A DNA stretch of 41,123 nucleotides. Source: Guillardia theta CCMP2712. Its lineage: Eukaryota > Protista > Cryptophyta. The DNA lies in NCBI RefSeq assembly GCF_000315625.1, contig NW_005434433.1, forward strand, positions 1 to 41,123, written 5' to 3'. Position numbers and translations under genes: made by a program. The notes beneath the pieces are model-generated. The model was not told the origin of the DNA and ran no database searches. It saw only the letters and a program-made list of their open reading frames with translations. Positions 5,746 to 38,700 of this stretch are shown piece by piece (position 1 is the stretch's first letter; each line of letters begins with the position of its first letter).

Positions 5746-5779
5746 TATATATTACACATATTCTAACACAAGACTCAAG

Positions 5780-16100: not shown

Positions 16101-19100
16101 CCGGCACACGGAGACGGCATACAGGGCATTCGACACCTGGATGTCCGTCGATTACGACACTGCCACCGACGAGCGCTACCTTGTGCTCGACACGCGGAGA
16201 CTGCAGAACGAGACGCTGCTTCGCAATTACTTTGGTGCCGCCTCCACCTGCAGCTCGGCATCCTACGGCATGCCCATGTGGGAGACCAACAACGTGAGGC
16301 TCCAAAGCCGATGGGCCAGCGGGCAGAGGATGGATCCCACACAGCCCATCAAGGCGGACACCGCCCCCTCTGGCACCTTTGTGCAGTCCACGGCTGCAAC
16401 GAGCTGGAGCGATGTCCCAAGCAACGGCCGGCAGTCGGACCAATCCTTCCCATCGTCGGGCATGCTATACCGCTGGTGGCCAGGCATGCTCCCAGCGGTA
16501 TCCTGGCCCCAGTCGAGCACCGACCTGCAGCGCTACCGCCTCCCCAATCACACGGCGGTGGGATGGAACGGGGACTGCGGCCAGACCGACTTCTTTACCT
16601 GCACCGCGGACGGGGACTGCGTCTCACTCTATGGGGAGGGTTTCAAGTGCCTGAGGGCATGGTCGGACGCGGAGGGGAAGGAGATGGACGGGGTGTGCGT
16701 AGTGCAGAATGCATTGGCAATGGAATGCTACCAGAACTATCACTGCGGTGCTTCCGGAAGGGTCTGCACCGGCATGGGAACCTGTGTGGATCCGCACGTC
16801 ATGCTGCGGAACTACGCCCCGTGGCCCGTGGAGATGCATGTCAATTCGGAGGCATGCGGCACGGAGACCCTCGGTCATTCACCCTGGCAGAACTCGCAGG
16901 ACTTCCTCTCCCGGCACGGGCTCTGCGGCTTCCGCTCCTGGTTCGAGTACGAGCAGCTGATCGCCCGCTCCGGGGTTGCGGGTGCTGCAACAGCGACACT
17001 GGCAAATATCCCCGATGACATCCAATGGCCCAGCACAGACCCATACCTCACCGACGCGCAGATACGGCTCGACATGTTCGACCGCGGGATCCTGAAGATG
17101 GAGCCTCACACCTGCGATATGGACTACCAGTTCCAGTTCCCATCCTGTGTCGGCAATCCATCCACCACCGTTGACAGCGTCGGGATCCCCTTGCCGGTGG
17201 AGGCACAGGGGGAGACTACCAGGACCTGGGTCTCGTCGGGTGACAACAAGTGGTCCCTGCAGCTCTGCAAGCTCGGCAGCCTGGAGAGGAAGAGGACGGG
17301 ATTCCTGGCCCCTTACCAGGGGTACAACCGTGAGGACTCCTTTGGGAACATATCCCTCTCCCTCTCCATGTGCTCCGAACTGCAGATCTGCTTCTTGCAG
17401 GACTTCTATGTCATGGGATACAAGATGCAGGGCAGGTTGATCAACAGGCTCAACCTGCAGAACCTTGGCACGAGGAGGGACGCCTACACCCTGCAGGACG
17501 CGCTGTATTGCGGCAGTGCCGGATATCTTGTGGATCTGTCAACCTCCTCCACAACCCTCACGGATGGGGTCCCATGCCGTATGGACCCATTGACCAACCC
17601 CATCGCGCGCATGCTATGCGAGGACTACGACGTCCTCAAGGCCTCCTGTCAGTTCAATCCTTCGTACATCAACGAGCAGGCAGTAGGCACCCTCTGCCGC
17701 TACTACAAATACAGCTATGCATTGGCAGACCGGAACAAGGTGGCAAGCGCGTTGAACGACATCCTGCTCCGTGGTTTCAAGCGAGGTTTCAACACCTGGG
17801 AGGAGTACCAGCAGCAGGCAGTGTGCATCGCGAATGTGTACAATACGATGTCGCTCTACGCGCAGTCCGAATCAACCAACGAGGCAACACAGTGGTATGC
17901 ATACGAGTTCGAGCCCGGGGTGCCCACCTACTTCTACCCCTACATGACGCTGTACTTTTATGATGACGCCTCACAGATGGAGATCCCGATGAAGTGGTGG
18001 GCGCAGTGCGTCATTCTAGACGGCGACGTGAACATCGACGGCATGATCGCCGGCAACATCGATCAAGTGCCCTGTGCGGGCTGGAAGAACTCACACACCG
18101 CGGGCTATCAACCATCGACGGTGAGGCAATTCCTGATGATGGCCAATGCGCTGTACCTGCAATCATCGAGGCGGGCGGTGGTGAACCAAGACCAGATTGC
18201 CCTCAGCATCTACGACACGCTGTACTCGAAGCTGCTCCAAGCGCAGGCCGACGTCACGGCAGCGATGGGCTATTCCTCGCACCCTGAGTACATCAACCTG
18301 ACTTACGTGCAGCTGCGCAAGCTCCAGAGCCGTTACAACCACGATTGGGCGTACAACCAATACACCACCTCGAGCGATGTCATCTCCGACAGCACCAAGA
18401 TCACCAACACGGACCCTGTCTATCAGGACGACGGCGGGCTCCCAGCCGACGACGGAATCCCAGCGCTGCTCACCCAGGTCCTGCACTTCATCCTCAGCGG
18501 TGACATCAACCTGGGATACGCCGCTGCCAACTCGGGGGTGAACCGCACGGCGAGGGCAAACCTGGCATTCCAGAGGGCGGATTTCGCGGCAGACTTCCTC
18601 TCGCGAGACAAGCAGTACTTCGATGCCACCAGCGGCATCCTGCAGTACAACTTCCCGAATATCTTCCGGCGATTCCTAGACTCGGAGCTCGACTCGATCC
18701 TGTCCTCCGTGCTGCGTGAAGATGAGCCGCTGGAGGATTTTACCTACGGAGACGTGCAATACAACGGTGCACTGTTTCGAAAGTATCAGAGCCTCATACG
18801 GGACAACACGCTGCAAACCACCGCATGTCTGTACAGCAACTTCCCCAATTACGAGCCTGGGATCACCAAGAACCTAGATCAAGATCCCGAGGTGCGACTC
18901 TGTGACTCTGCGCAGAACTGCCGTTCCATCAATGTCTGCAATCCAACCCCATCCTACGACCAACGCACGGGGCAGTCCTGCGATTTGCTTCATGCTTCGC
19001 AGGATGACAGGTGCACCAACACGTACCTTAACGCCCCAGGGGTGAACGGTGGGAATAACATCTCCATGCAGACGCATTGCAAGCAGTTCCTCTTTGTGCG

Positions 19101-22100
19101 GGACATACAAAGCGCCGTCAACCCTTCGCTGACCTCGGTGCAGTTCACAACCATTGATCTCGACGTCACCAACCCAGCTGGCGACATCTGCTTGCGCACC
19201 GACTCCACCTGCCTGCGGGACAGCCAGTCGCTCGGCGGGTTCTCCACCCCCGTCGACCTTGTGCAGTCCGTCAGGGGTGTTGACATCTACGTGTTCTACC
19301 GCGACGGGACGGCGGGGAGCCGCGATCCCAATGCGGACGAGTTCTACTCTGCGGAATACCCCAGGACGAGCACGAGATGGTACCCTGCCTGGGTCGACTG
19401 CTTCAATGTCACGGGGGTGAACAAGAGCCACCTGCTGTCATGGACGGGCTGGGATGCGGAGACGGTGGGATCGGTGCAGAGCACGCTGAACTCATGGTAT
19501 GCCGGGACGGGGCAGCAGCCCAACTTCGCCGTCCTCTCCAACGAGGCAATCTGGAGCCGGTACGGGGCAAGGCCCACTGGGGTCTCTACACGCTGCAGCA
19601 CCGATTCCTGCACTACGATCCTGGGATCGGTGAGCCCCTGCCCTGGCAAGGTCTGCAATGTTGCCCGCGACAACAGCCTCGTGCATGCCATTGCCCTGCA
19701 TCTGCAGAATGCAACGGAGATCTTCTGTGCCAGCAGCGCGACGGACGCGCTCTCCAAGTGCCCGCTGAGGTCGGTGAATCAGAGCGTATTGGCAGAGATC
19801 ATGGACAACCTCTGGATCTGCAAGAGTGACTGCGCCCGCGTGCCGTTGCTCAAGTATATCGGAAAACACCTCTACCGCTACAGGAGGATCGACGAATCCG
19901 TTCTTGGCTTCACAAGCTCTGACAGGAACTACATCGGCCTCACAGGGCAGAGCTCAGCGGCCAATGGGTATACACAGAAGGATGCATTCCGGCTCATGCA
20001 CTTTCTTGTGTCAAGGCAGATCACGTCTGGCAACGGCCTTCTCCCTTCCGACCTGTACAACCAGCTGTGGATAACGCCGGATTTCCTCAGCCTTGCATTC
20101 ATGGACACCAACGACAAGTATCCAGACACAACGCTGAACCTCTACGAGCTGAACAGCTACAGGGCACAGGCCGAGACTATGCGTCTCCAACCCCTCGACA
20201 AGTGCATCAACCAGATTGTCAAGACCACCGAATGCACACCGGCGTCACACAGGGAGAGCCTCAAGTCGTGCCTTGCGCAGTACAAGCGGAAGTCTGCAAG
20301 CGTCGCTGACCTCGAGCAATCCGTGCTAACCAAGCTCACGGCTGCACAGGTGACCTCGATGCACAGCCTGCACTGGGCCAAGGCTGCGAGGCCGTCGCGA
20401 GATCAATACCTCGATTGGGTGCTGAGCGATATGCGCTGCGAGGAGACGCTGCAGTCCGAAGCCGTTTGCTACAGGACCTTCGACGGCTACGTGCTCTCGC
20501 TCAACCCATGGCTGGGCGGGGGCTTCAACATCAGGGATGCCTGCGACACGGTGGTGCTCCCCAATGAGTTCAGCACCGTCATCAGCGGGGGTTGCAAGAC
20601 CGGGATCTCCGCCTGCACGGAGTACAACTCCCTGGTCTATGCCCAGTGCATCACAAAGAACAACCAGCCCCCATCCCGCATCGACATCCTGAGCACTGCA
20701 GGCAACAACCTCTGCAACCGCGGGATTCGCGTCAACACAACCTGCCTGCACGAGCAGGGGAGCTTTGGCGGCGGGTCCGGGACGACGATGGAGGATCTCT
20801 ATACACGCCCGGCCACCTCCATGCCTTACTCGGGCATCTTTGGCTCGAATCCAAACCCCGCGTTCCAGGCCCGCTCGCCACAGTTTGGCATCCTGAGGCA
20901 GTCGCAGATGGACATCGGGGGGTCGCTCCTCGTCGCCGACCTCGCCCCGCTGCCCGACGGCGTCACGCACAACCTGCTGCCGAAATGCCTGCCCCTTGCC
21001 TATGCAACCAATGCGGATACCTCCCCGAGCACCCCAGGGATCGACCCATGCGCATCCAACAACCTCGATTGGCTCAAGACCTACGCCATCGATTCCCGCT
21101 CGGATTACGATCTGAATGCGGCCGAGCTTGGCAGCGCATCGCAGAACGGGGCGGTGTCCTGGGACTGCCCTGTGAGGGAGATGCACTACTGGGGAGGATC
21201 ATCGCAGTCCTTCCGTCCCAAGGCACCCTACGGGCCCCGTGCAGCGACGATGTTCTCGGAGACCAACCAGATGGGCGGCACGGTAGGGAACGGGATGTCC
21301 AACCCCATGCAGCCCTTTGGAACCACGATCCCAGACCTCGCAGACCCATTCTTCGTGAGCGAGATCTGCAGCTGCTCCTCGAAGTCCGACTGCTCCTTCC
21401 TCACCACCGACACGGCGAGCAGCTGTGGGCTGTACCAGACGGTCGATCTCCTCACCGGGAACCAATGGAAGACCAAGCAGAGCTACGCGGGAACTCAGGG
21501 ATGCAAGCGGAGCCTTGACTGGCCCAACACCAAGGGCGTCCTCCGCGACGGTACCGACCTAGGGAGTGCGGCACAGAACACAGACTGCCCCGTCCACGAT
21601 CGTCTCAGGGAGTTCCAGCTCAGGTATCTCCCTGTGAGCATCACGGCGGATGCCGGCATCACCACCCTGGACGCGGGAGGGGAATGCCACACAGGGCGCC
21701 TCGTCCGCGTCCCAAGCACCGTTCCCATCGGGGGGAGATGCCACCGGTACAACTTCTCACACCTCGAGTGCAGCATCACAACCCTCATCGCAGGGAAGCC
21801 AGTGACGGACACCTCCTTTCACGCCCTCGACGTCCCATCCCCAACGGACTTTGTCACGCAATTCCAGGCCAATCATAGGAGGACATTCCAGGAGTGCCAG
21901 CCCTCCCCACAGCTCAGATCCTACGTCGACAGAACCGACAACGCCAGGAACCCCGTATCCAGCAGCATGAGACAATTCACAAGCTTTGGGGTTCCCGTGA
22001 GGCTCTCCCTCTCCCGCACGATGGCACAGGACCTCCGAAGGCAGATCTGTGGCAATTCCATCGATTGCCCGTTGCTCGACAATGCCATCGACCCGAGCAA

Positions 22101-25100
22101 GTGGACCGTCGACAGCTTCCTGCAGGCCTACCTGCAGGATTTCACCTCCCTCTTCCAGATACAAAGCAGCGCCTCCATCTCCACCCCGGCGCCGCCCAAT
22201 CCCGTGAATGACAGCAAGTTCTGGGACAGGGAATGGGTCTTCTGCTCTGACAGCGACCGGTACTCCAAACCCTACTCCAACAGGAAGTGCTACGGATCCA
22301 TCCCGAAAGAGACCTGGCTTGACCCTAAGCAGCGCTTCGGTGCGTGCCGCGATGCCATGTCGGCGGCCCCAACCACCAGCACGATGATCCCCATACGCAT
22401 ATGGACGCTCGACTCTACGATGAACAACCTCTCAACGCACGTCGCCAGCCTCCTGCAGAGGATACAGGCTGCCAACTGCAAGGCCGCGGGGGTGTGCGTC
22501 GAATCACGCTTCCTCTACAACCCGTCGGCCTACAGCATATCCAACCAGGCCTTTGTGACGCAGACGGTGCTGGACTTCTACCAGTCGGTGAGCAGCGAGG
22601 CGTGCTCCTCGGTGTACACCACGCAGGAGATCCAGGCGGTGATCGCACAGAACAACAACATGAAGAAGCAGTGCGCGGCAGAGTTCCTTGTCCCTATCTA
22701 CAAGCTGTTTGGGGACCTGAGGCAGATCGTTCAGACCATTGTCAAGCTCGTCTTCTACGCAGGGATGATGGGGTTCAACTTCATGCAGCTGCTGCTAGGC
22801 ATCAACTCCGATCAGGTCATGCCACAGGTGATGCATTGGTTCAACATGTTCATCAACGAGGCAAGGGTGCTGTTTGAGCAGATCGGGAACATGGTGTTTG
22901 AGCTCATACGCTCCGCTCCCTTTGGGGATCAGCTCATGAAGATCATCAAGATCATCTGCACCATCATCAACTGGTTCCTGAACAATTTTTTCTTCCCTGT
23001 CATATGCCCCATCCTGCACTTTGTAGGTGACGTGTGTACGGGCATCGGGAATGCCCTGAAGACAATCCATGACATCAGCATCATCGGGATCAAGCCCTTC
23101 ACCTGGATCGTCTACCAGATATACCTGGATGTAGGCAACAAGCTCAAGTCGATCGATTGCAATGCCAGGAATGTCCTCAAGTGTGACATTGGGAATGCCT
23201 TCCCACCTCAGGCGGAGGATGGGACCCTGCCGACGCCCACCCGCTGCTGGGCCAGCTACATCACCAGCGTGAGCGACGGGGCCCGCCTCTCCTGCTCCGC
23301 CTCGGACACCTGCCTTCGCGCCACGGCCTCGAGCGGGTCGGACACGATGGTGTGCGACGCATGCCCCTACGGCGGATCCACCAGCACGGTGGCAAGGTAC
23401 GGGTGCGATCCCATACGGAAACAGTGCATGTGCAACGTGATGCAGACCTACGAGACGCCGTGCATGACGCACGAGCAGTGTGTCAACCAGATCGATGCCA
23501 CCTGCGTCTTCATGAACAGCGACATACAGCCGACCTTTGGAAACATCCCGTGCGCACAGTGCACAACGCAGCCGATGTGCATCCTGCAACCCGGAAAGAC
23601 CTACGGCTCTTGCTCCTGCTTCCTCACGCGGGTGGACCCACAGGGCTGCTCCATCAGCGATGTCACCAAGGCGGTGGCACCGAAGCTCTCCGGCCTCTGC
23701 CTTGCGCAGGTGACCACCTCCATGGGTGGGTTCTCGGCATCCTCCAGCGCGACCTACACGATAAGCTACAACAACCTCCTCGCCACACCTTGCTACAACA
23801 GCAACTACGACCAGGTGTATTGCTACAGCGTGTTCAGCTCGTTCTTCAGCTTTGCACCGATGCTCGTCTCCATTGGCATCAGCGGCATGTCTGGCGCCGG
23901 CGCCTCGGGCCCTTACGGCCGCCGCCTCCTCGGTTTGGACTCCCCAGAGTTCTACAGCCACGACGCCACCTGCATGGACGCCTACGACGAATACCTCCTC
24001 TCCAACCGCACCACCCGCGTGTTTGTCTCTTGCATCACCAGGTTCGCTGCAACCTACGATGTTGCAAGGCGGCACGGCATCGAGGATCGCATCCCTCCCA
24101 ACATGTTTGTGAGCCTCACCGACCTGATGGAGACCATAGGGAATGATCCCACCGCCCTCCTCCTCCTGCTGTACAATCCCACCCTCGTGCTGGAGCTTGG
24201 CATGCAGACCAGCATCTTCCAGCGCTTGCACCGCTACTACCACGTGTGGACGAGGGTGTTCCACGACCTCTACTACGAGATCGCAATCCACGGCACGAAG
24301 AGGAACAACAGCCTTCATTATCGCATAGATATCGACGGCGGGATGTATATCCACGGTGACAACATCAGCGAGACCACGCTCCTCCTCCTCAACATCCTCC
24401 ACAGCCTCTCCTCCCACTTCAACCGCTCGGGGGTAGACGGCCCGCTGGCGATCCAGAACCAGCTCGCGATGAAGCACATCCTCAGCATCGCCGCCGATGG
24501 GCCTTTTGCCATGCACCTGCTCGAGAACATCACCAACGCATCCATCGGCAGGCACCTGCTGCAGACCTCATGGCAGACACAGAGGAGCGAGGTGAAGCGG
24601 TTCACCGCCTCCACCTCCCTGAATGACGGCATTGTCGAGCCAGTTGGGGCGGCGACCAGCAATGCCTGGGTGGACAGCCCCTTTGCATGGCCCGTGAATT
24701 ACGACATCCCGCAGACCCTCGGGTCCTGTGCGCTCCTGTCCAACACACTGACTCTGACGAGGAACGCCTTTGGCAACGTTACACTGTTCTACACCCAGGG
24801 CTCCCTCCTCGCCGCCAGCCCCCGCAAGGTGGTTTCAGGCAGCTGGCCCCTAAGCGGCCTGCCGCAGACCAAGACTGTGCCACCGCTGCAGAGGCCCGTC
24901 AACGGGGATTGGATCTCGACAATGGTCTTCACTGTCGTGTCCGCACTGGAGCACACGCCGTTCAATCGGCAGTTCTTCTACAATGCGCTCATGGCATCGC
25001 CTGGATTCCTGCAAGACTTTCTCCGGTGCGACCGGTCGGCCGTGATGCTGTGCTCCAAGCACAAGTACACACTGCTGGTCTCCGGCATCGTCGTAGGGAT

Positions 25101-25740
25101 ACTGCTCGCGGGGACCACTGCGGTGATCACTGCCTTCCAGATCCCCTACGTGAGCACATTCCTCTGGGGCACGTACCCAGTCATCACCAGCTACTACGCC
25201 TTTGGTGTCTCCCCCTTCTGCGCACCGATGATCCCGACGTGCTTCATTCAGGACTTTGTGGATATTGCCAACGTGTTCTTCCCCTCGTCCTTCCGCTTCC
25301 CCGACAGCCTACAGACCTCACCTGGGTGCCTCAACGACCCGGCGGTGGTCAATAGGGAGGCATGCATCATCCCCTGCAGCGACGCGCCGTTTGAATTCAA
25401 TACGTGGGAATCCGAGATCGCATGGTGGACTTGCTTCATCTCTACCGACCTCTGCAGGTCTCTGGGGGCGTCCATCGCTGGATTCCCGGCCGCGGTTCAG
25501 TTCACCTCGCTCAACCGGCACATATCTGTCAAGGCAGCCATCATCGATGCATACCAAGAAGACATGATCAACGCACAATTGGTTTGCGGCACGCTGAATA
25601 TCTGGCGGGTCATACCAATCTACATCATCATATTCTTCCTCCTCTACGTCATAGGCCTCCTCGTGAGCTTCCCGGTATTCCTCCTGAGGGAGGTACTGAA
25701 GCTCATCATCGCGACAGTCATAATGACACATATAGATTAA
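13011..25740 (+). CDS. Giant (~4200 aa) cysteine-rich membrane/surface glycoprotein, true 5' end unclear
   Basis: Coding-like across two 100-N gaps (frame across the gaps is unreliable). Many small Cys modules and NxS/T sites, an internal hydrophobic helical block (~22690-23130), RRLL (~23920) and RHLL (~24550) motifs, C-terminal TM helices. No signal peptide or in-context ATG. Confidence 0.85.
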
Positions 25741-25815: not shown

Positions 25816-26781
25816 ATGTCCGAATCCTTCCCCCTCCCACGCATACGCCACACGGAGCTCCACAACACCAAGAAGACATACACCATACTGCTCGAGGTTG
25901 TCCGCCACAGCAGGCAGATGCGGGATCTCAGAGGCATCCGCTTCTTCTATCTCGGGGAGGGTGTCTCTGGCAAGTGCTTCCTTGCCAAGCAGGAGGGGCA
26001 TGCCTTGGTGATCAAGCTCTTTTCAAGTCCAACGCTCTTCATGGAAGAGACCCAGATCAACCGATACCTTCTCGATCAACTCTCTGACTACAGAGAGAGG
26101 GACCATATCGGCACCTGGTCGGGATTTGGGATGTTGAAGAAGGAATACAACCGAATCATGTACGCCATCCTCCCCTACCTCGGGGTGCCGACACCGCGTT
26201 TCATCTCATTCTATCAACCACACATGCGGGAGAAGCTAGTAGAGAGCTTCCAGAGGATCTGCCGCCAACTGGCCCGCCTGCACTCCCTCTCGGTCTATCA
26301 CACCGACATCCGAAACCACAACATCGTCATCAACGAGGATGGCTCTGCTTATCTCATCGACTGGGGGAATGCTTTCATCCCAAAGCTCCACCCCAAGGCT
26401 TACAACAAGGACGGGACAATATCCCACCTGCCCAATCCGACCCTTTGCCCCGAATCCATCAAGCTCAAGATATCCTGCATGACCAAGAACACCATGGATT
26501 ATCCGATCGTGTGCAGGGCCAATGCCTTCACCTACCACGACCTGGAGGCCACGGACTTCTACGCACTGACGATGGTGTTTGTCAAGATCTGCAAGGCATG
26601 CATCCAGAACGATATACACCTGCGGGATGCCATCGGCGGGTTCCTGCAATGCATCTACGAGAATTGCAACAACAACCAGGACATATTGAGACCATTCATA
26701 CTGGAGGCGATCATGGAGCACTTCGACGCACACCAGTGCATGGAATTCTTCAAGGCATGGAGTATATTGAACTCGAATTGA
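25816..26781 (+). CDS. Ser/Thr protein kinase
   Basis: Gly loop LGEGVSGKC, VIK lysine, helix-C Glu, HTDIRNHN catalytic loop, LIDWG. AATAAA directly at the stop. Confidence 0.92.
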   Translation: MSESFPLPRIRHTELHNTKKTYTILLEVVRHSRQMRDLRGIRFFYLGEGVSGKCFLAKQEGHALVIKLFSSPTLFMEETQINRYLLDQLSDYRERDHIGTWSGFGMLKKEYNRIMYAILPYLGVPTPRFISFYQPHMREKLVESFQRICRQLARLHSLSVYHTDIRNHNIVINEDGSAYLIDWGNAFIPKLHPKAYNKDGTISHLPNPTLCPESIKLKISCMTKNTMDYPIVCRANAFTYHDLEATDFYALTMVFVKICKACIQNDIHLRDAIGGFLQCIYENCNNNQDILRPFILEAIMEHFDAHQCMEFFKAWSILNSN

Positions 26782-26787
26782 ATAAAT

Positions 26788-27351
26788 CTACGCGTAAAAC
26801 TCTGGGTTCGAGCTGTAATAGCACGCAAGCTGCAGTGCGATGCAAACGTCATCCTTCATGCCTCCCACCTTTCCACTGAGCGCCATCTGATCCTTGTTGA
26901 ACACACTGGCCGCGCTCTTGAACTGGTAGGAGTAGATCTCCAGCTGCTCGCGAAGCCGACGCTTCATGCCCCTCGGATCGCGGCTCACGAAATTCTCCCA
27001 GAGATGCACCCTCCCCTCCCTCAGCAGTGAGTTCAGCATCGTGCACATCGCATGCTTGATCTCATGCGTGGTGAGGACGCCGTAGCGCTGGGCCTTGTGG
27101 TCAACCCTGAATCTCACATTCTTCATGCCGTTGAAATGGCGCTGGTGATACTCCGCCTCGAACCCAAGGTTCCGCTCCACCATGACAATGATCTCGGATA
27201 CTACAAAGGCCGTGTTGCAATCCCTCAGGCGCTGCATGTGCTCGGCGAGGAGATCGAACTGCTTGTCTGGCTCTGCAGTGCAAGAGGTTAAAAAATGCAT
27301 CAAAAGGAAGCGTTCACCCTTGCATCCGGAGAGGACGTCCATCCCGACAAT
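26788..27351 (-). CDS. Terminase large subunit, final exon(s): RNase H-like nuclease C-terminus
   Basis: MVERNLGFEAE and LSGKVGGMKDDVCIALQLACY match herpes-type terminase (VEGN; SGK..DDLxVAxxMAxY). Acceptor CTGAC..TTGCAG| at 27352. Probable in-frame 45-nt intron at 27273-27317. Confidence 0.9.
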   Translation of the reverse strand: MVGMDVLSGCKGERFLLMHFLTSCTAEPDKQFDLLAEHMQRLRDCNTAFVVSEIIVMVERNLGFEAEYHQRHFNGMKNVRFRVDHKAQRYGVLTTHEIKHAMCTMLNSLLREGRVHLWENFVSRDPRGMKRRLREQLEIYSYQFKSAASVFNKDQMALSGKVGGMKDDVCIALQLACYYSSNPEFYA

Positions 27352-27365
27352 CTGCAACGGCAAGA

Positions 27366-27761
27366 ATGTCAGTGCCACAGAGAGACATCCTCTTCCACAT
27401 CCTCTACAACAACGACATGAAGACAACAATGAAGCTCTGCCGGGAATCTGCACAGAGGCTTGCCAACATATTGAAAGACCCGCTCCCCTCCAAATTGCTC
27501 GACATCGCCAGCAGGAACGAGCACATGGCGCGGTGTGTGCTGATCTTGCTGCTCAATGTTGACATGGGTCTCAAGGAGACATTCACAAAGCCCTACGTCA
27601 TCGAGGAAGCCGAAGTCACCCTCCAACCCCTCTGCGGATACAAGGCCCCCGTGTTTTTCAAGGCGATCGACAGCACTGTGATCCCAAACTTCCTCCGAGA
27701 CGAACTCAAGACCACCATCACCTTCGAGCAGGAGATCCAGGAGATGTATCAATGCTCATGA
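27366..27761 (+). CDS. Hypothetical protein nested in terminase intron
   Basis: 131-aa ORF (start could be 27417) wholly inside the intron, antisense to the terminase. Confidence 0.7.
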   Translation: MSVPQRDILFHILYNNDMKTTMKLCRESAQRLANILKDPLPSKLLDIASRNEHMARCVLILLLNVDMGLKETFTKPYVIEEAEVTLQPLCGYKAPVFFKAIDSTVIPNFLRDELKTTITFEQEIQEMYQCS

Positions 27762-27777
27762 GCATGGCATCGCCTGG

Positions 27778-27785
27778 TATTTAAA
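27778..27785 (+). promoter_or_regulatory. TATTTAAA promoter box
   Basis: 25 nt before ATG 27810; the same motif at similar spacing recurs at six other genes. Confidence 0.65.
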
Positions 27786-27809
27786 CTTGCAGACCCAGTT
27801 CAGTTAACC

Positions 27810-28490
27810 ATGATATCGGGTCTGAAAGACTTCACGTCCTTTCTTGCGAGCACCATTGACGATGCAGAACGTGACATTTGCAAGGTTGTGCTCCACCTGG
27901 AGTACAACAGGGAGAGAATCTGCAATGCTGACCTTCAGCCACTGATTCTAGACACTAAGGTGGTCCTGTTGATCGTCGCTTCCTGTACCAGCTTCAACAT
28001 CCCCGAGAAGACCATGATCTGGGAAACGATGATCAAACACCAGGGCACATGGCAAGAGTTGGTGCTCGAACTGAAGAAGCACGAGGATGATGCCCAGTGC
28101 TCGGAACTCTGCAAGGACCTCGACGAAATCCTTCTCTATCTCGATATGTATCGACATGGAGTTGACCTGAAGCCTGAGGTTTTCCAGACTATCTCGGAGC
28201 TGAACACCTTCACGATGCCGTCAAACGGCAAGGTCCCCGTGTGCATCATCAATGCCCTGCACCTCATGCAACAACAGCATAGGTACATGCCTGAGCACAT
28301 GGTCCAGGATCCGACGTACGGTGATTTCATCAAGCTCCTCGCACTGGCCAACAACATCCCCGTGCGCAAGAGCACAATGAGCAAGGTCCAAGATGCTGCC
28401 TGGATGGTTGTCACCTTCGTTGTGAAGCACTGTATCGGATTCACGATATATGTGTTTGAAAAGTACACCCTCAGACACATCCTTTGGTAA
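27810..28490 (+). CDS. Hypothetical protein nested in terminase intron (C-terminal hydrophobic segment)
   Basis: 226-aa ORF with its own TATTTAAA and a downstream AATAAA (~28533), all within the intron. Confidence 0.8.
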   Translation: MISGLKDFTSFLASTIDDAERDICKVVLHLEYNRERICNADLQPLILDTKVVLLIVASCTSFNIPEKTMIWETMIKHQGTWQELVLELKKHEDDAQCSELCKDLDEILLYLDMYRHGVDLKPEVFQTISELNTFTMPSNGKVPVCIINALHLMQQQHRYMPEHMVQDPTYGDFIKLLALANNIPVRKSTMSKVQDAAWMVVTFVVKHCIGFTIYVFEKYTLRHILW

Positions 28491-28563
28491 CCCTGCGGAA
28501 TCGCGCAAAGGAAATCCCACTGGTGTTTGCAAGAATAAAACACGCACACATCCCTGCACTTAC

Positions 28564-29121
28564 CGTGATCAACCCCTTGTGCCTCACGATGCTCACCACC
28601 GCGTAGTCACTCTGCGGGCCACCCGCCGCTGGGTCCACCACAAGGTAGATGTTCTGGTTGCTGACAAACGGGGGCGCCTGCTGCGACAGCATGGCCTCGA
28701 TGTCCTTCACCCTGAACGCCTGCTGCAAAGAATCGAACGCCAGCCCCGCCAGCTCCGACTGGATGAGGTCGGGCCTGTCTTGCATCACCACCTTCAGCCT
28801 CCTGTGCCTCTCCCCGCTCTGCCACTGCGGAACGAGATGCAGCATGTGCACACACTCATGGCTCTTCCCGTCCTCCTTGCACTGCTGGCAGGCGAGCTCG
28901 ATGCACTTGACGGCAAAGAGCGGGCGGCCAGTGTCGGGATCGCGCATCTTGATCAGCCTCGTGTAGAAATTGATTTCGGAGGTGAGCGTGGAGATGCAGA
29001 GCAGGGAGGTGCTGCCAATCGATAGGATTGGCGCGACGGTCTCATAGAAGAAGGTCGAATCGCAGTAGGCTGCCTCCTCCAAGATCAGGCAATCCCCGCC
29101 CGTGCCCTTGGTTGTGCCAAT
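28564..29121 (-). CDS. Terminase large subunit, internal exon: Walker B, coupling motif, Zn-binding segment, first nuclease Asp
   Basis: KGTGGDCLILEEAAY (cf. herpes RGQDFNLLFVDEANF), CIST, CQQC..C.H, YLVVDPA. Bounded by acceptor CTGACACTGTCTGTTTTGCAG| (29122) and donor GTAAGT. No ATG start. Confidence 0.9.
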
Positions 29122-29239
29122 CTGCAAAACAGACAGTGTCAGAGCCAACGCGCACACCAGCCGTCCACTTCCACCCTTATATCACTCGGCGCTGCATCGT
29201 ATTTAATACCGCGTAGCAACACACAAGCACTACAGAATC

Positions 29240-29554
29240 ATGTCTGAACCTATCAATATGAGGCAGACACTGGAAGATATCGCCAGCAAGCTCGACATTG
29301 TGTCGAGGCATGGTGATCAGGACGAGTTGATCAACGCTGGTATCACGGCAAGGAACCTGAGGAATGCAAAGAAGTTGAGCGACAAGCTACAGCATGCACC
29401 CAACACCAAGGAGCTCATCGATTCGTGCCATTCGCAGTGCAGGAATCTGATCTCCGCGCTCTCCGACAGGGAGAATAAGCAAAACGTGCGTGCGATCCAC
29501 CAGAATCTCATGCGAATCGCATCCCCAGGAAAGCAGAAGAAGACGAAGCACTGA
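29240..29554 (+). CDS. Small helical basic protein
   Basis: 104 aa; TATTTAAT at 29200-29207; C-terminal KQKKTKH. Confidence 0.7.
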   Translation: MSEPINMRQTLEDIASKLDIVSRHGDQDELINAGITARNLRNAKKLSDKLQHAPNTKELIDSCHSQCRNLISALSDRENKQNVRAIHQNLMRIASPGKQKKTKH

Positions 29555-29677
29555 GCGATACACCGTTGATACAAGATGCATTAAACTTGTAATCGACCCC
29601 ATCCCCCCTCTGACCCCCCCCTCTTGGGGTCTATATAAGCCCTCCCTCCCCCTCCCCCTCCCCCAACCCACCAGACC

Positions 29678-29992
29678 ATGGACTCTAAGCCCATGCTTTT
29701 TCACAACAACCTCCGCAGGCTTGCCCGCACCCTGGTGCATGCCAGGCACCCCACCAACTCGCAGACTGCAGAGTTTGTCGAGGAGCTCGAGCGTCTCACC
29801 AAGACGACCTACGAGGGTGTCACCGGGCTGTCCAGTGAGGACCGTCGCAGGTGCATTGACATTGCGACAGAGAACATGTGGCTGCTGCGCTACCTCGAGC
29901 TCTACACGCAGACCAACGCGGCGCGCTTCAAGCGCTCGACGCACGACTACGTCGGGCGCTTGCTCAACCTCTCCTTGGACGTTGTCTTCTAG
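29678..29992 (+). CDS. Small hypothetical protein
   Basis: 104 aa; TATATAA at ~29632, ACCATGG start context, AATAAA at ~30016. Confidence 0.75.
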   Translation: MDSKPMLFHNNLRRLARTLVHARHPTNSQTAEFVEELERLTKTTYEGVTGLSSEDRRRCIDIATENMWLLRYLELYTQTNAARFKRSTHDYVGRLLNLSLDVVF

Positions 29993-30063
29993 ATTGCACT
30001 GAGCCCTAAACATGCAATAAAGAATCTTAACCTATAAAAGCCTTGTCTTTGCAACGCTCACAA

Positions 30064-33000
30064 ATGCATCCCGCCGATGCAATAAACCACGCGTCAAACC
30101 TGAGCCTCGACTACGATGGCATCCGCATCGTGTATCCCAACACCACCTTTGGGCCAGGGCTCGGTGAGGATCTCGAGGCAGAGGCGGAAGCACTGCTCGA
30201 TGAGATCTCCGCAATGCCGATCCTCGAGATGGTGGAGAGCGCAGAGCCAGATCACGAAGAGCTCAGCGAGCACGTCGAGGAATGCCTAGACACGGAATTC
30301 CCGCAGCTCGACGCAGTCTACGATGCATCCATCGAGAAGGACATCCAGATGCTTTGGCAGAACGTTAAGGGGGTTGCGCTCCTCACGGACCGCCCGTTCC
30401 GGATCAGGGCTAGCAGGAAGACATTCGAAGACGTCGACTCCGAGGAGGAATTTAACGAGCCCGACAGCAAGAAGCGGATGGGGCCCGAACCGGAGAACCC
30501 ACCGGAGGATATCGTCTATGCTAACGAGGATGAGGAATTCAAGCAGAGGATGCAAAAACGCATCGACAACCTGAAGCGCAAGCAAAAGCTCTACTGGAAC
30601 AACGACGTGAACGACCAGGCCTACTATCTGGCCTTGCAGATCATAGCGGCCCAGAAGGCCACCAGGGGGTATCTGCAACAACTGCGCAAGGCGCGACGTG
30701 AAAATCCGGCTATAGTCGATATGATGAAGCAGCTGCTCGATGTAGAGATCCAAAACCTGCGATCGCTCCGCAAGAAGCAAGAGGATCTCATGCAGATCTC
30801 GAGTGTGAAGGAGCAGAACATGCTCATCAAGAAGATCCGTTTCTACGAGAACCTCTTGCGATCTGCCACCCAGCGTGTGGACATCCCGGATTTCCTCAGC
30901 CTGCAGAAAATGGAGGAGCAGAGCAAGATGGCCTTCTTCGGCGTCACACTGCCGCCCAAGGTTCAGGGCCTTCAACCCTCCGAGATCACCAGCAAGCGGT
31001 ACGATCTCATCCCGAACAAGCAGGAATTCCCAGAGGGTCCAGATGGCATCCTGCAGTTCTTGGAGTCCAAGAAGCCAAAACCCATCGAGAACGAGTGGCT
31101 GCCATCCGGCATCTACACCCTCATCCACCTCGAAACGCTGCGGATGGAGTTGAACGAACAACCGGACGAAGACCCGTTCTGGGAAAAGGAGTTGCAGGAC
31201 GCAGCGGAATTCCTCCGTAACGAGATCTCGCAGCATGACCTCGATACATACTGCTCCCATTACGGACAGGTGATGCGCAACATGCGGAATTCCATCTTCC
31301 GCGAGGTGAAACTCCTGCGCAACCACTACCTCCATCTGCACGAGAGCGCCCTTGTCCGATATCAACAGGCCAACCTCGACGGGACGAGCGATTTCTACAA
31401 CGAGTGCTTCCAATACCTGATCAATTGCCAGAATCTCGGGGATACCGACAAGGCCAAACTGATCAAGACGATCACGAAGAAAAACCTGACGTTTTTCATG
31501 CAGAATTTCCAGGACACACGCTGGATGGCACTGATCGTGGGCGACAAGGAACTGTGGAACAACAGGGTGCGTAAAATCAAGCGCAACTCGAGCGAGATTG
31601 CATCCGAGAAGTGGGACCTCTTTGTGATGGCCAAGACCAAGGCCATCGAGGCCTGCATCTCCAAAATCACACAGGCACGGACGATCCTGCAGCTGCACAC
31701 ACTGCAGAACTACGATCGGACGCAGCTGACCACCCCGACCAAGGTGCAGGCCATCATGCTGAGGGGCATCATCGCCATACACAATGCCATGACACAGGCA
31801 CCGGTGAGGATGAACATCCAGGAGCTCATGTCTGACGTCAACATAGCCAACCTCCCCTTCTTCGGGAGAAACCAAGGCATCATGCGGGCACTCCGTGGTT
31901 TCAGCCCCTTTGTCTTCATGCTCAAGCAAAACGACATCATAGAGAGCCTCATGCAAAACTTCAAGGGCATACCCCCGCCAACGATCCCAAGCGCCACGGC
32001 GAAGCTCAAGGACCGCGTGGAATGCCTCAAGAACCTCGATCGGTGGATGCGGCGCCTCATGCCGATCTACACCTTCTTCAACCTGCAGAACAACACCTAC
32101 AAGGATATCAGCAAGTTATTCCCGGAGACCACAATGCAGGCCTCGAGCCGATTCGAGGCGTTCAAGCAGGCGGTGCTCGATCTACGGCAGCAGACGCTGG
32201 AGCGCTACAAATCCATCATGGACTCTAATTACATCTACCTGCGCAACATTCAGCCGGAGGCGGAGGAGCCGGCAGAGAGCATGCAAGAGGCCGAGGAGGT
32301 GCAACCGCCCGAGAGCGAATTCACCGAGCAATCCGAGTTCAGCCTGGGTGCAATCATCGGGATGCCAATCGTTCTGCAGAGAAGGAAGAAAAAGGTGAAG
32401 GTCGCACGCAAACCGGCATCGACAAGCAGGCGACACCAGAGAAACATGCAAAGGATCACTCTAGCACGATTCATGTCCTACTGCAAGGCATCCAGGTCGA
32501 TGCTCAAGGATCTCTTTCAGACAGGTATCCTTGTCCTGACACACACCAAGATGAAGACACAGAGGCTGCAGACCTTCATCCCTTACTTCGGGGTGCAGCA
32601 AGCGGGCTGCACGCAGCTGATCATACAGAGCTTCACCTACGCCCTCTCCAACACGTCGGCAGGGCATCGCAAACTGCTCGAGACCCTCAATGATTACTTC
32701 AAGGCCAATCTCGATGCATTCAGCCACACCATGTATTACATCCTCCTGGCATTGAACAACATACCGAATGCATCGAACCTGCTCAAGAACAAGATATTCC
32801 AACTTCAGGAGCAGGTGCAATCCACGCTGGTGATTACGAACAGCCTGACAACAGAGATTGCCATGAATAACAAGCAAAAGAAGGACTTCCTGCTGAAACT
32901 CAACGCATCCCTGACAGAGTACCAGCGATGCACCAACACACTGAACCGCGTCCTGCACCAATTCTCGGTCGAGCAATCCAGCAACATCCACCTCCATCAC

Positions 33001-36000
33001 TTCCAGACGGCTTGCATTCAGGTGTTCCTGAAACGCCTCATGTATCTGTCCCCCGAGATGAAGGTCGACGTCGACAACGAGTTGGAGATGCTGCATTCCA
33101 TCATCTTCAATGTGGAGCACCTGCCCAAGTCCGCAGCGACACTCCATCAAGCGACCCTCGGTGTGCCTTTCACAGCAGATTCAACATCTGAGATAGAGCC
33201 CGAAGAGGCCGAGACAGCATCTGCGGCAGATGCCACCTCTGAGCAAGAGTCAGAAGAGGCCGAGACACAAGCTGCCACCAATGAAGAGGAGGACGATGGC
33301 GTCGATGTCAATATGGACCCACAAAAAATCGAAATAAAGAAGCATGACAATGCTGAAGGTTCCAATCCTGAACAGCTGCAGGAACAGAAGGCAGCACAAT
33401 TCAATGGTTTCTTTGTAGTCCGGCCCAACAAACCGTTCTACCCCTTGCTGGACCAGGAGGATGCAAGTTTCGTCGGTGGCTCAGAAAAAGGGCTGTACAT
33501 TGCACAAACCATACAGCAGACCTACAATGACCTAAAAACATTCATCCGAACTACAGTGCTGAACATAGTCCAACAGAACGTCATCCCCTTTATGCAGGCT
33601 GATCAACAGATGCTCCCAGCCTTGCAATACGTCCATGCTGAAGAGGTGCATCGTCAGATCCTTGACTTCATGAACATGCATGAACTAACAAGTGATTTGA
33701 CCACACTCAGTCAGCGGATGAAAAGGTTCAATGCTTACCAGATAGTCATGAGGATGGGTATCGAACCTCCAAGAAGTAACTGGGTGGTTGGAGTTGTCAA
33801 GCTGTGGCACAGCATCTTACTCATGCTCCTGCGATTCGACGCAAAACTAAACGTAAAGTTCAACGAGATCCCCATTTTCACGGGTAGAGAGATGACATTG
33901 AGCAACATCAATCCGCAACTGAGCAAGCACGACGTCCTTGATCTGATCTTCGACCATTTCGCATACGATTGCTGGGTGCCAACAAACAGGCCAGCCCTAG
34001 GCAACCCACCCGTCTTTGCGCAGGCCGGAGCGCACAACAAAACCTACCTATTCTACAACATGCAACCCATACAATGGAATCAAGGCGAGGATTCATCCAG
34101 CATACAACTGATCTTCAATTATGCTGCAGATGCCAAGGTGTTCAGAGACACCATCATGCGGATGAGCGACAGGCATGCTGCGAAGTTATTCATCGACGGC
34201 AAGCCCGAGGTCTCGGAGGATGCAGACACCCTCGCGCTGCTGCCCGCCGCATACACAAAGGTATTCGTCAACAAGCTCGAGACCGCAACACACGAGCTTC
34301 TGAACGACTTTGCCAGCATCAACGAGAAGTACCTGATCGCATTCGGCATCAACAGGACGACGATCAACGAGCGCTTCAAAGCACGGCAGGATGCCTGCTA
34401 CAGGCTTGGGAACTCTGTACAGTTTACGACGTTCACCATAAAGAACCGATTGCACAACATGCTGTTCCAAACGCCGAGTTTCAAGGAGAACCTGCGGGCT
34501 GAGCTCGATCACATCTGCGACATTGTCAAGACATTCACCATTGAAAATTTCGCACCGTTCGTCAACCGGATGCAAAAGCTAGAACAGATCCCTACGTTGT
34601 ACGCCGAGCCCAAGCCCATGACTTGTCACACCTACGTCATGTACGAACGCATGAAAAACGGTTACATGCAGCACGTGCTGGACAAGCAGGACGATTTCAA
34701 TGACGTGCATCGACTCTCCGCCCTGTGCCTATTGCAGGAGTCGCTGATCGAAAGGAGGAAGAACATGGAGAAGCTCTTCCCGATCAACCACACCAACTCC
34801 GAATTCACCTCCAATCTCGAGTTCGACACCAAGCAAGAGCTCTACGATCACCTCTCCCACGAGCTCAAGAAACACCTCGAGGTATTCGTAGAGCAGAACA
34901 ACGTGGTGGAATCAAGGTACGATGCATATGCTTGTGCTCTCCCACGGCTTGATGCATTCTCACAGGTAAACCAATACCCCACTCCCATGCAACGATACAA
35001 CGACACACAATACAGCCCACACGTGGGGCAGGCGATCTTCGACCAGGGATCGCAAACCGGCCTGCCGTTCAACAGGTTCATGTCCAACAGCGACCCAGAG
35101 AGGCCGTACCAGGCACGCGAGGACATCCAGAAGATCTCGGTCGTGCACTGGGGGCAGCGCAAGCTGTTCGTCGCGGAGATGTCGTTCCTCTCGGCACACT
35201 ACACCCCATCCATCACGACCGTGGTGTACGCCGGTGCCGCGCCAGGGACACACTTGGTCGAGCTCATGCTGAAATTCCAGAAGCTCTCATGGGTGCTCGT
35301 CGACCCCGAGCCCTTCCATCACAAATTGCGCGATTTCTACTCGTCGAGCGTGACGCTCATCCAAGACCGCTTCACCGACGCGTTCGCGGCCCAATTCGCA
35401 GGGAGGAACGACGTCCTGTTCATCTCGGACATCCGCACTGCCGATCACAACCGCGACAACAAGGAGGAGAACGAGCGGAAGATTGCACAGGACATGCAGA
35501 ACCAGAAGCGATGGTTCCGGATCATGAATCCAGTGGCCGCACTCTTGAAGTTCAGGCTCCCCTGGGACAATAGGATGACAACCTACCCCATGGGAAAGAT
35601 CCAGTATCCCGTCTGGGGGCGCGTGTCCACGACGGAGACACAGCTTATCGTGCTTCAAAACGCTCCCGACACGGTGTACGACAACAAGAGGTACGAGAGC
35701 AAGATGTTTTATCATAACACGATCGCGAGGGTGGGGAGATACCTGGAGGGTATCGAGGATACAGGCATCCAGTTTGATTTCTGCTATGATTGCACGGCAG
35801 AGATCCAGGAATGGAAGAACTACAACCAGTGGCAACTGGCCTATGAGTGGAGCCAGCACGTCCAAGCAAAGAAGATCAAACCGAAGAGCATGCAGCGCGA
35901 GTGGGAGAAGTTCCAGGCAGACTTCTGGAGACGGACCAGCATCCCGTCGCAGGCAGGCAAGCTCTCCGTCGCCCTGGGAGGGCAGAACACCGAGTTGATC

Positions 36001-36129
36001 AAGAAGCCGCCAGATGCAACGTCCTCCTCCGGTTCGACGTCGGCCGCATCCAACAATTCCAACATCACGGGAGAGATGCAAAACGCCTGCGTGGGATGCG
36101 GACAACTCCTCTTCACGCATATCGAATAA
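30064..36129 (+). CDS. ~2020-aa helical protein with C-terminal VP39/poly(A)-polymerase-regulatory-subunit-like cap 2'-O-methyltransferase domain
   Basis: Domain at ~35100-35810: HWGQRKLFVAEMSFL, VVYAGAAPGTH, WVLVDP, LFISDIRT, LLKFRLPW, STTETQL, CYDC. TATAAAA at 30033; first ATG at 30064. Confidence 0.88.
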   Translation: MHPADAINHASNLSLDYDGIRIVYPNTTFGPGLGEDLEAEAEALLDEISAMPILEMVESAEPDHEELSEHVEECLDTEFPQLDAVYDASIEKDIQMLWQNVKGVALLTDRPFRIRASRKTFEDVDSEEEFNEPDSKKRMGPEPENPPEDIVYANEDEEFKQRMQKRIDNLKRKQKLYWNNDVNDQAYYLALQIIAAQKATRGYLQQLRKARRENPAIVDMMKQLLDVEIQNLRSLRKKQEDLMQISSVKEQNMLIKKIRFYENLLRSATQRVDIPDFLSLQKMEEQSKMAFFGVTLPPKVQGLQPSEITSKRYDLIPNKQEFPEGPDGILQFLESKKPKPIENEWLPSGIYTLIHLETLRMELNEQPDEDPFWEKELQDAAEFLRNEISQHDLDTYCSHYGQVMRNMRNSIFREVKLLRNHYLHLHESALVRYQQANLDGTSDFYNECFQYLINCQNLGDTDKAKLIKTITKKNLTFFMQNFQDTRWMALIVGDKELWNNRVRKIKRNSSEIASEKWDLFVMAKTKAIEACISKITQARTILQLHTLQNYDRTQLTTPTKVQAIMLRGIIAIHNAMTQAPVRMNIQELMSDVNIANLPFFGRNQGIMRALRGFSPFVFMLKQNDIIESLMQNFKGIPPPTIPSATAKLKDRVECLKNLDRWMRRLMPIYTFFNLQNNTYKDISKLFPETTMQASSRFEAFKQAVLDLRQQTLERYKSIMDSNYIYLRNIQPEAEEPAESMQEAEEVQPPESEFTEQSEFSLGAIIGMPIVLQRRKKKVKVARKPASTSRRHQRNMQRITLARFMSYCKASRSMLKDLFQTGILVLTHTKMKTQRLQTFIPYFGVQQAGCTQLIIQSFTYALSNTSAGHRKLLETLNDYFKANLDAFSHTMYYILLALNNIPNASNLLKNKIFQLQEQVQSTLVITNSLTTEIAMNNKQKKDFLLKLNASLTEYQRCTNTLNRVLHQFSVEQSSNIHLHHFQTACIQVFLKRLMYLSPEMKVDVDNELEMLHSIIFNVEHLPKSAATLHQATLGVPFTADSTSEIEPEEAETASAADATSEQESEEAETQAATNEEEDDGVDVNMDPQKIEIKKHDNAEGSNPEQLQEQKAAQFNGFFVVRPNKPFYPLLDQEDASFVGGSEKGLYIAQTIQQTYNDLKTFIRTTVLNIVQQNVIPFMQADQQMLPALQYVHAEEVHRQILDFMNMHELTSDLTTLSQRMKRFNAYQIVMRMGIEPPRSNWVVGVVKLWHSILLMLLRFDAKLNVKFNEIPIFTGREMTLSNINPQLSKHDVLDLIFDHFAYDCWVPTNRPALGNPPVFAQAGAHNKTYLFYNMQPIQWNQGEDSSSIQLIFNYAADAKVFRDTIMRMSDRHAAKLFIDGKPEVSEDADTLALLPAAYTKVFVNKLETATHELLNDFASINEKYLIAFGINRTTINERFKARQDACYRLGNSVQFTTFTIKNRLHNMLFQTPSFKENLRAELDHICDIVKTFTIENFAPFVNRMQKLEQIPTLYAEPKPMTCHTYVMYERMKNGYMQHVLDKQDDFNDVHRLSALCLLQESLIERRKNMEKLFPINHTNSEFTSNLEFDTKQELYDHLSHELKKHLEVFVEQNNVVESRYDAYACALPRLDAFSQVNQYPTPMQRYNDTQYSPHVGQAIFDQGSQTGLPFNRFMSNSDPERPYQAREDIQKISVVHWGQRKLFVAEMSFLSAHYTPSITTVVYAGAAPGTHLVELMLKFQKLSWVLVDPEPFHHKLRDFYSSSVTLIQDRFTDAFAAQFAGRNDVLFISDIRTADHNRDNKEENERKIAQDMQNQKRWFRIMNPVAALLKFRLPWDNRMTTYPMGKIQYPVWGRVSTTETQLIVLQNAPDTVYDNKRYESKMFYHNTIARVGRYLEGIEDTGIQFDFCYDCTAEIQEWKNYNQWQLAYEWSQHVQAKKIKPKSMQREWEKFQADFWRRTSIPSQAGKLSVALGGQNTELIKKPPDATSSSGSTSAASNNSNITGEMQNACVGCGQLLFTHIE

Positions 36130-36140
36130 ACGGTTTTATT
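36125..36140. terminator. Back-to-back polyadenylation signals of convergent genes
   Basis: AATAAA (36125-36130, +) and TTTATT (36135-36140, -) each contain the TAA stop of the respective gene. Confidence 0.65.
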
Positions 36141-37591
36141 CCTTATCCCCTACCACGACTACCGATTTCTTCACCGCTGTCCCCACTGCCTTTGCAACCT
36201 GCTTTTTCACCTTGCTCTGCTGCACCTTTTCTGGCACCATTGATTCCACCACGGGTGCGGAGACACTATCCTTGCAACAGCTCACCGACGGCAGCTCGAA
36301 CCTCTTTTTGGGTGCTTCCATCGGCGCTTGCACCGACGGCAGTTTGAAGCGCTTTGCACTGCTCTCCAACATCACACCCTCGGCATTCTCCATGTCGTCA
36401 TCCTCATAGGCCCAATCTAAAGGCATCGGACAGAAGTTTGCCTGCAGCAACGCACCGCGCATAAACACCTCGTCGTCTAGGAAGTAATGCATGGCATTCA
36501 TCCCGAACATCATCTTGTAGTGCTGCTGTGTTGTCCCCACGTACCATACGGACTTGCTCTGTTGCAGTTTCTCGTACTCCACCGACGAGGGATCCATCGA
36601 CAACTTCCTCAGGTCCACGCGGTATGGCATCACATCGGGGATTATCACAAAGAAGTCACGATCAATCTCTCCACCCACGATCATGCACGGTGTGAAATCC
36701 ACCTTGATGATGCGCTTGTAGAAATGATTCAAAGTCGCGGTGAGCAGCGGAGTGTCGTTGGGCATTGGCATCATCCCCAGCCTGAAGCACAGCCGGTCTC
36801 CCGAATTCAGCTCGATGTGCCGCCAGTAATTGATGAGGTCCTTCGTGTGCCCCTCCACATTCATGCTCGTGACGTGATTCACCGCCAGCATCACAGGGCT
36901 CATCCCCACCTCGTGCATCCCGCCCTGTTTCTCCGACCCAGCACACACCCCAAAGGGGACCACGGCATTCAGGAAGATCGCCAACACATCCCTGATCTCT
37001 CGATCCTTGAAAACCTTGAAGTCGGAGTTCGAGACCGTCTGCCCAAGGATGTCCATGAGGAAATTCCTCCACTGTGCGTCACTCAGCGATGGGGTCCAAT
37101 CATCGAGCCTCACCCGCCTCCAGACATGCTGCAGGCCAAAGAGGATGTAATTCAGCGTTGGCAAATTGATGAATGCAGTCAGGTGCGTGCCGCTGTCCTT
37201 CACACCCTCGGCAGCCTTCACGGTGACACCCAGCGTGTTCTGCACAGACCGCAGCCTCAGCGACCAGGCGATGTCACCGTAATCCACCGCGTGCGAGATG
37301 CGCACCATCCCCTTGCCGTCGCCAATCGGTGGCAGCATGATCTCGGGCACAATCTTCTGTATCCTGTACGGGACATTGAGGTAAGATGTCTGGGTGCTGA
37401 GCCTTGCGGAATCCCCATACACGTAAGGGGTGATGCCCCCCCAGCAACGCGTTGTTGTAGTTGATCCGCGCATCGGGAGTCCCATTGAGGCCATATGGCA
37501 GACCCTCCGTATTAAGGGGCGGCAATGGCCCGCTGTTCATCACCACCTCTGGCATACGCGGATTGCCTAGATTCCCGTAAAAGTCAGACAT
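36136..37591 (-). CDS. ~484-aa protein interrupted by one extra base in a G7 run; possible capsid triplex-like protein
   Basis: ORFs 37274-37591 and 36136-37494 join as NNALLGG-ITPYVYG if G7 (37436-37442) is G6. TATAAAA lies upstream. The triplex idea rests only on the VEG..NYW..SGDRL pattern and genomic context (weak). Confidence 0.7.
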
Positions 37592-38370: not shown

Positions 38371-38700
38371 ATGTCATGGGATTCCAACGAGGAGATCATC
38401 AGCTATCTGATCGCGGCGCAGATCTGCCCACCGCTCCCCATGGTGATGCTGCACGAGGCAACCGGGGAGAACAAGATCTGCAACTCCCACGACCTCCTCT
38501 TTGAGATGACAAGGCAGTGCTTCCAACACGCGGAGGCTCTCAGCGACGAGACGCGGAACCGCATGACGGCACAGAAGATGCAACTCTACGACGGCCTCGT
38601 CGCAGCCCTCTGCAATATCGACACAGGGATGCCAAGAGATGCCGACCCCGCATCCTGGAGCATGCAATCGCGGCAGACCGTCTACAACCTTTTATTTTAA
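38371..38700 (+). CDS. Hypothetical protein whose stop codon is at the start of the right repeat array
   Basis: ATG at 38371 (MSWDSNEE) after a C-rich leader; TAA 38698-38700 coincides with the first bases of the repeat. Confidence 0.65.
   Translation: MSWDSNEEIISYLIAAQICPPLPMVMLHEATGENKICNSHDLLFEMTRQCFQHAEALSDETRNRMTAQKMQLYDGLVAALCNIDTGMPRDADPASWSMQSRQTVYNLLF

Follow-up and report, generated by a model that had tools for sequence, protein, structure and literature searches.

Predicted intron layout of a mirusvirus-type terminase C-terminal half in the Guillardia theta assembly, with two antisense genes in one intron

Guillardia theta is a cryptophyte alga, and its assembly supplied the window examined here, the whole stretch of DNA that was analysed (41,123 nucleotides). 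A sequence-only reading of this window described a terminase gene of three exons, with two genes nested on the opposite strand in the longer intron, and regarded the nested layout as a new arrangement. The locus raises the questions of whether the introns are real, whether the spliced product is a complete terminase, and whether the nested genes serve the intron that carries them or the virus as a whole. The first exon was 100% identical to G. theta GUITHDRAFT_121626, and the accessible part of one report lists the assembly with mirusvirus capsid proteins of clade E03 (PMC10827195). The features of the locus are as follows.

29176..29181, minus strand: TATAAG, 55-60 nt upstream of the acceptor
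29122..29142, minus strand: splice acceptor with CTGAC branch point, CTGAC...TTTTGCAG
28564..29121, minus strand: exon 1 of the terminase C-terminal half, 558 nt, 186 codons, spanning the presumed Walker-B-like ILEEAA to the presumed first nuclease-like acidic motif VVDPA
27352..28563, minus strand: intron 1, 1212 nt, GTAAGT...CTGAC...TTGCAG
27372-27368, minus strand: branch point CTGAC of intron 1
27318..27351, minus strand: micro-exon, 34 nt
27273..27317, minus strand: intron 2, 45 nt, GT..AG, in-frame
26788..27272, minus strand: last exon, 485 nt, remainder of the nuclease domain
27366-27761, plus strand: nested gene A, 131 aa, inside intron 1
27778-27785, plus strand: TATTTAAA, likely promoter of gene B
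27810-28490, plus strand: nested gene B, 226-aa orphan, inside intron 1
28534-28539, plus strand: AATAAA, after gene B

Exons, introns and product

The exon and intron coordinates proposed earlier were exact to the base when checked against the window, and, as read from the DNA, the layout is that listed above. The joined exons comprise 1077 nt, or 358 codons and a stop. The claim of a 358-aa product running from Walker B to the nuclease domain stood as regards the joining of the exons and failed as regards a whole protein, since it covers no more than the C-terminal half of a terminase of the mirusvirus type. ILEEAA and VVDPA in exon 1 are taken to be the Walker-B-like and first nuclease-like acidic motifs, and VERN and KDD in the last exon are presumably acidic motifs of the nuclease domain.

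The window exons themselves had no Pfam or PHROG match. Three intron-less homologues matched the PHROG family phrog_2, terminase large subunit (E 6e-5 to 1e-3), in agreement with the identity first assigned, while the N-terminal half of one relative gave a weak match to phrog_38 (E 0.011). A sequence search of the PDB returned at best the Walker B region of a phage terminase with an E of only about 1. Together, these weak profile matches and the presumed motifs suggest that the gene is a terminase.

The introns were compared with those of relatives, defined as the best 80 of 464 confirmed metagenome stretches. Both flanking exons were present in 67 of these loci, which were considered informative and in which the last exon was matched by tblastn; the other 13 were shortened or lacked a match at the start of the last exon. 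Both introns occurred at the same sites in 65 of the 67 informative loci, so the layout is not a matter of chance, and both were missing from the remaining two, the near-identical L060 and L061. With the window included, the borders were GT..AG in all 66 rows for intron 1 and in 62 of 66 for intron 2. These borders and the shared sites bear out the proposal that the introns are spliceosomal. The micro-exon was found in every one of the 65 intron-bearing relatives and lay flush in the alignment with intron-less homologues. Exon 1 had 1051 homologues of similar length, and a scan of viral contigs with exon 1 gave no match. A search of positions 26500-29700 against Rfam also gave no match, so no self-splicing intron or RNA gene was seen in that interval.

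The in-frame intron 2 required separate consideration, as a 45-nt segment could be read as retained coding sequence. It was the shortest of the 66 rows (window included) and had a GC content of 0.42, compared with 0.56-0.61 in the exons. Retention was ruled out by two observations, 1) among the 48 distinct sequences at this site, 37 had lengths that were not a multiple of three and 2) nine intron-less homologues had no space for 15 extra residues, the three window exons abutting on these proteins without a gap, an outcome in keeping with the check on homologues that the sequence-only reading had set. The 45-nt intron is therefore real. A T-run near the donor was present in 37 of the 48 distinct sequences, as against 12.6 (maximum 20) in 500 shuffles; it is not specific, as U-rich introns are common. 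Intron 2 also holds an A-tract on the plus strand (27288-27295) that is a possible promoter of gene A. A distant terminase, L082, which was 38% identical, had intron 1 at the same site and lacked intron 2, an absence that weakened the case for intron 2 as an obligate promoter module. The L082 terminase (10001-11610) also holds an antisense ORF, which was not recognised by the profile of the gene A family described below and to which that family could not be tied (probability 0.3%).

The missing ATPase half

Position 29121 had been taken as the start of the gene. It is preceded by CTGAC...TTTTGCAG, which the sequence-only reading did not mention; the branch point lies 21 nt before the first codon of exon 1, and there is no in-frame ATG from which the exon could start. 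Among the best 80 of 464 loci, an AG preceded the first codon in 77, and, counting the window, 42 of 49 distinct upstream regions had no in-frame ATG ahead of a stop. The acceptor at 29121 is, judged from these sequence features, likely joined to a remote exon carrying Walker A, the ATPase exon. Such an exon (TPRRFGKT) was found in five of the 80 loci (L029, L035, L039, L052 and L080), in each case on the same strand and 1-3.5 kb upstream. In L035 the N-terminal half ended at a phase-0 GT donor and continued into the frame of exon 1. The best tblastn hit for an N-terminal half in the 41-kb window had an E of 0.022, and there was no profile match.

According to the accessible parts of Medvedeva et al. 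(Nat Microbiol 2025, PMC12768974), most mirusvirus terminases of this kind are assembled by trans-splicing close to Walker B, a finding backed by RNA. The window shares with the trans-spliced mirusvirus and alloherpesvirus terminases a C-terminal half whose first codon follows a canonical acceptor immediately ahead of Walker B, but it differs from them in that no partner exon was found in the 41 kb and no RNA junction was seen.

We consider it probable, at roughly 0.7, that the locus encodes a terminase C-terminal half with two introns at conserved sites, likely transcribed from its own promoter and likely trans-spliced to a Walker-A exon outside the window. The pre-mRNA of this half would be made in the host nucleus, where introns 1 (1212 nt) and 2 (45 nt) would be excised by the spliceosome of the host and the acceptor at 29121 would be joined in trans to the remote ATPase exon to give the full packaging motor. 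Intron 1 would be neutral space for the terminase and carry genes of the opposite strand. The nuclear, spliceosome-dependent expression proposed at the outset is supported to the extent that we infer it from the splice sites. TATAAG (29176..29181) is a possible promoter of a separate C-half transcript. In 19 of 42 distinct loci, compared with 7.2 in shuffles, a TATA-like motif preceded the acceptor by 40-130 nt; on the opposite strand the figure was 17 of 42, compared with about 7, so that the enrichment is not strand-specific.

Joining in cis, in the style of herpesvirus UL15, is rather improbable. It would place the ATPase exon over 12 kb upstream on the terminase strand, past the repeat array described below, and the genes at 29240-36129 would be antisense within one giant intron. 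The three genes adjoining the acceptor are indeed antisense, cis-splicing explains equally well the five relatives that have both halves on one strand, and the alphaherpesvirus UL15 has such a layout (accessible part of PMC3079670). However, no N-terminal half was found within 12 kb upstream in the window, and the interval contains a same-strand gene whose stop (36136) is marked by AATAAA, so cis read-through would be cut. In L035 and L052, too, the two halves are separated by same-strand genes, and the halves are on opposite strands in some of the genomes covered by the accessible parts of PMC12768974.

The same-strand gene (36136-37591, minus strand) corresponds to a single conserved gene in relatives and is here divided between two frames, with the break in a G run near 37435. 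Its homologue was found head-to-head with the terminase, 0.3-1.9 kb before the acceptor, in 20 of the best 80 of 464 loci. The adjoining plus-strand gene (30064-36129) encodes a 2021-aa protein with a C-terminal PF01358 domain (poly A polymerase regulatory subunit, cap methyltransferase-like; E 1e-21).

UL15 had also been used earlier as the model for the nested genes. It is a spliced terminase with UL16 and UL17 in its intron (accessible parts of PMC3079670 and PMC13595911), and the resemblance extends to two antisense genes in an intron. The comparison was nevertheless made with the wrong junction. In UL15 the intron stands between the ATPase exon and the nuclease exon, and its counterpart is the junction at 29121, whereas the gene-bearing intron of the window lies 186 codons beyond this pre-Walker-B junction. 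There was no sign of a relation of gene A or gene B to UL16 or UL17.

State and setting of the element

It is very improbable that the locus is a silent, decaying endogenous relic, that is, an inherited architecture no longer expressed in G. theta. The RNA depth was near zero over 19.9 kb in one raw-read run; in run X5, of which about 6% was read, a stretch of 4.6 kb had 5 reads and one of 19.9 kb had 33, none of them across a joint and too few to speak for or against splicing. Another run, X6, gave no contig. The frame shift in the conserved neighbour near 37435 and the long branch of gene A in the tree of its family also point to decay. Against this, every exon is intact, as are the splice signals and the two nested ORFs; the shift at the G run may be an error of sequencing, and silence in a single culture fits latency equally well. 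Moreover, the differences between copies, as seen in two DNA runs, were mostly synonymous (6 of 7 sites in the terminase and 5 of 5 in the kinase). Those in gene B comprised two changed codons and two silent sites.

The neighbouring genes have a near-identical copy on another record of 259.8 kb, and the two DNA runs differ at many sites of the element, which is therefore likely multi-copy. Arrays of a 332-bp tandem repeat (31-732 and 38698-40762), inverted and 98-100% complementary, enclose a gene-dense block of 38 kb; they could mark an invertible segment, an origin or packaging repeats, or an assembly edge. Inverted tandem arrays of 13 bp (3664-3819 and 8498-8625) surround a 4.7-kb block. 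The window also contains a giant Cys-rich ORF (13206-25740, plus strand) of more than 3500 aa, with a predicted membrane end, no Pfam match and two N gaps. A protein kinase gene (25816-26781, plus strand; PF00069, E 1.4e-8) lies tail-to-tail with the terminase stop, 6 nt away.

The nested genes

Two plus-strand genes had been proposed in the long intron; both ORFs, 27366-27761 and 27810-28490, are present and both have homologues. The layout as such proved not to be new. Mirusvirus terminases were already known to have gene-carrying introns at one fixed position in their nuclease region, published as MING-1 introns, with 271 cases (Medvedeva et al., PMC12768974), so the finding is ordinary for mirusviruses. 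In the accessible parts of the source table, where MING-1 is named 'MNGF-1', the antisense genes have 77-271 aa and the introns about 390-1070 nt. The window shares with these introns the GT-AG borders, the fixed nuclease-region site, an antisense gene of about 130-150 aa with a confident fold, and the CTGAC branch point, which is reported there for Styxvirales. It differs from them in the length of the intron (1212 nt compared with about 1070 nt in those table parts), in a second, unrelated gene of 226 aa, and in its origin from the assembly of a cultured cryptophyte and not from a metagenome. The layout is thus mostly known, and the second passenger makes it a variant. The authors of 2025 named the lack of cultures as a block to the study of MING-1 (accessible part of the review file of PMC12768974), and it is in this respect that the assembly of a cultured alga is of value.

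Gene A fits MING-1 by site, strand and size and is here called MING-1-like. Among the best 80 of 464 loci, all 65 introns held an antisense ORF, 110 aa or longer, that starts near the acceptor. A profile, designated family A, was built from the intron ORFs of 47 relatives with the window left out; it matched gene A (E 5.8e-20) and 74 of the 80 loci, the six misses being contigs that end early. The ATG of gene A overlaps the branch point of intron 1 by one base. The AF2 model of gene A was predicted with a pLDDT of 94 to be mostly helical, and Foldseek found no match to it in the PDB or BFVD at E<=0.001; the best VIA match had Z 5.2, rmsd 5.2 and 88 aligned, and no structural match was clear. 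The ESM Atlas contained no usable match for gene A or gene B.

The terminase tree was calculated from 44 rows, 31 loci having been dropped as duplicates, shortened or further split. The nine intron-less terminases fell into two separate starred groups, and a single clade was rejected (p-AU 5e-5, 25-row subset) in a test whose group was set by intron state but which came after the first tree. This implies that both introns were lost precisely at least once, and twice if the tree is rooted outside the two groups. The trees of gene A and of the terminase have their main split in common. In the intron-less L060, a family A gene (5509-5871, minus strand; E 6.6e-24) lies 1.1 kb past the stop of the terminase C-terminal half, and the last 26 residues of such a gene are found in the same place at the contig end of L061. 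The free-standing L060 protein is recorded on 27 contigs. In the gene A tree it groups with L055, L057, L058, L062 and L076 (93/89, not starred), and the terminase groups roughly alike.

MING-1 was proposed to be an RNA chaperone and its genes were sought only inside introns (accessible parts of PMC12768974), so a free-standing homologue such as that of L060 was outside the published method. No mention of a free-standing MING-1 was seen in the papers retrieved on MING-1, mirusvirus terminases and their introns; the supplements of PMC12768974 may list such copies, as well as introns with two genes. The agreement of the trees and the free copy fit vertical co-descent and relocation rather than homing, and the free gene together with the two intron-less groups argues against a pure intron-chaperone role, this evidence being from one lineage. 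As judged from the sequences, gene A would most likely act in trans as a virus-level, packaging-linked factor and not as the chaperone of its own intron. The complex predicted for an N-terminal half, a C-terminal half and the MING-1-like protein of L060 had a score of 0.00, computed with no alignments and with halves from different viruses, and speaks neither for nor against such a factor.

The least credible reading takes intron 1 for a mobile intron of the homing type (shintron) and gene A or B for a diverged endonuclease or maturase by which the intron is spread or folded: shintrons are likewise gene-carrying spliceosomal introns with antisense cargo in genes of the virion module, the insertion site is fixed, intron-less alleles exist and the proposed chaperone role would suit it, but genes A and B had no HNH, GIY-YIG, VSR or PD-(D/E)XK Pfam match, the 46 members of family A had no credible Pfam match and no Pfam nuclease family among them, their alignment had a single invariant residue, the gene A tree follows that of the terminase, and the L060 homologue is outside any terminase intron.

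On the trans-spliced reading, the MING-1-like gene at the 3' end of intron 1 would be vertically inherited, and the unrelated gene B, which has a TATA box to itself, would have been inserted later as a passenger, behind the MING-1-like stop and ahead of the poly(A) signal. More generally, MING-1 could be a vertically inherited, trans-acting, packaging-linked protein that survives intron loss as a free neighbour, with the intron as a cargo bay for repeated insertions behind it; this generalization is tentative and on balance doubtful. If it were true, a cultured alga with this element would be a system in which to test a trans-acting MING-1.

The TATTTAAA and AATAAA ascribed to gene B were both located, and TATTTAAA-like motifs were present 30-45 nt before several other genes of the window. 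No separate AATAAA followed gene A within 120 nt, and the two genes may therefore share a 3' end at 28534-28539. A poly(A) signal near the donor is not a general trait of the family, as it was present in only 12 of 51 cases. Gene B had two homologues among 1.84 billion representatives, 46-48% identical over the full length, and is therefore a real gene; none was found in the best 80 of 464 loci, in L081-L082 or in the viral contigs. A tandem duplication of gene A was rejected as its source (hhalign to family A, probability 1.8%). Its model (pLDDT 65) was predicted to be helical and had no match in BFVD; elsewhere it resembled generic helical bundles (best Z 10.4, rmsd 2.7, 106 aligned), below the bar that the search tool sets for bundles.

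The second gene accounts for the length of intron 1, which in the 65 intron-bearing relatives among the best 80 of 464 is 355-761 nt. The window shows that a MING-1-type intron is able to take a second full gene, and its relatives bear on the role of MING-1, as co-descent and the free copy, from one lineage, point away from a role confined to the intron. Other second passengers are present in at least three relatives. A conserved second ORF of about 75 aa lies between the MING-1-like stop and the donor in L046 (6558-6850) and L047 (2843-3110), L044 (596-920) has a second antisense ORF of 80 aa in the same intron region, and L049 (1019-1675) may have another. The space behind MING-1 thus appears to take passengers repeatedly.
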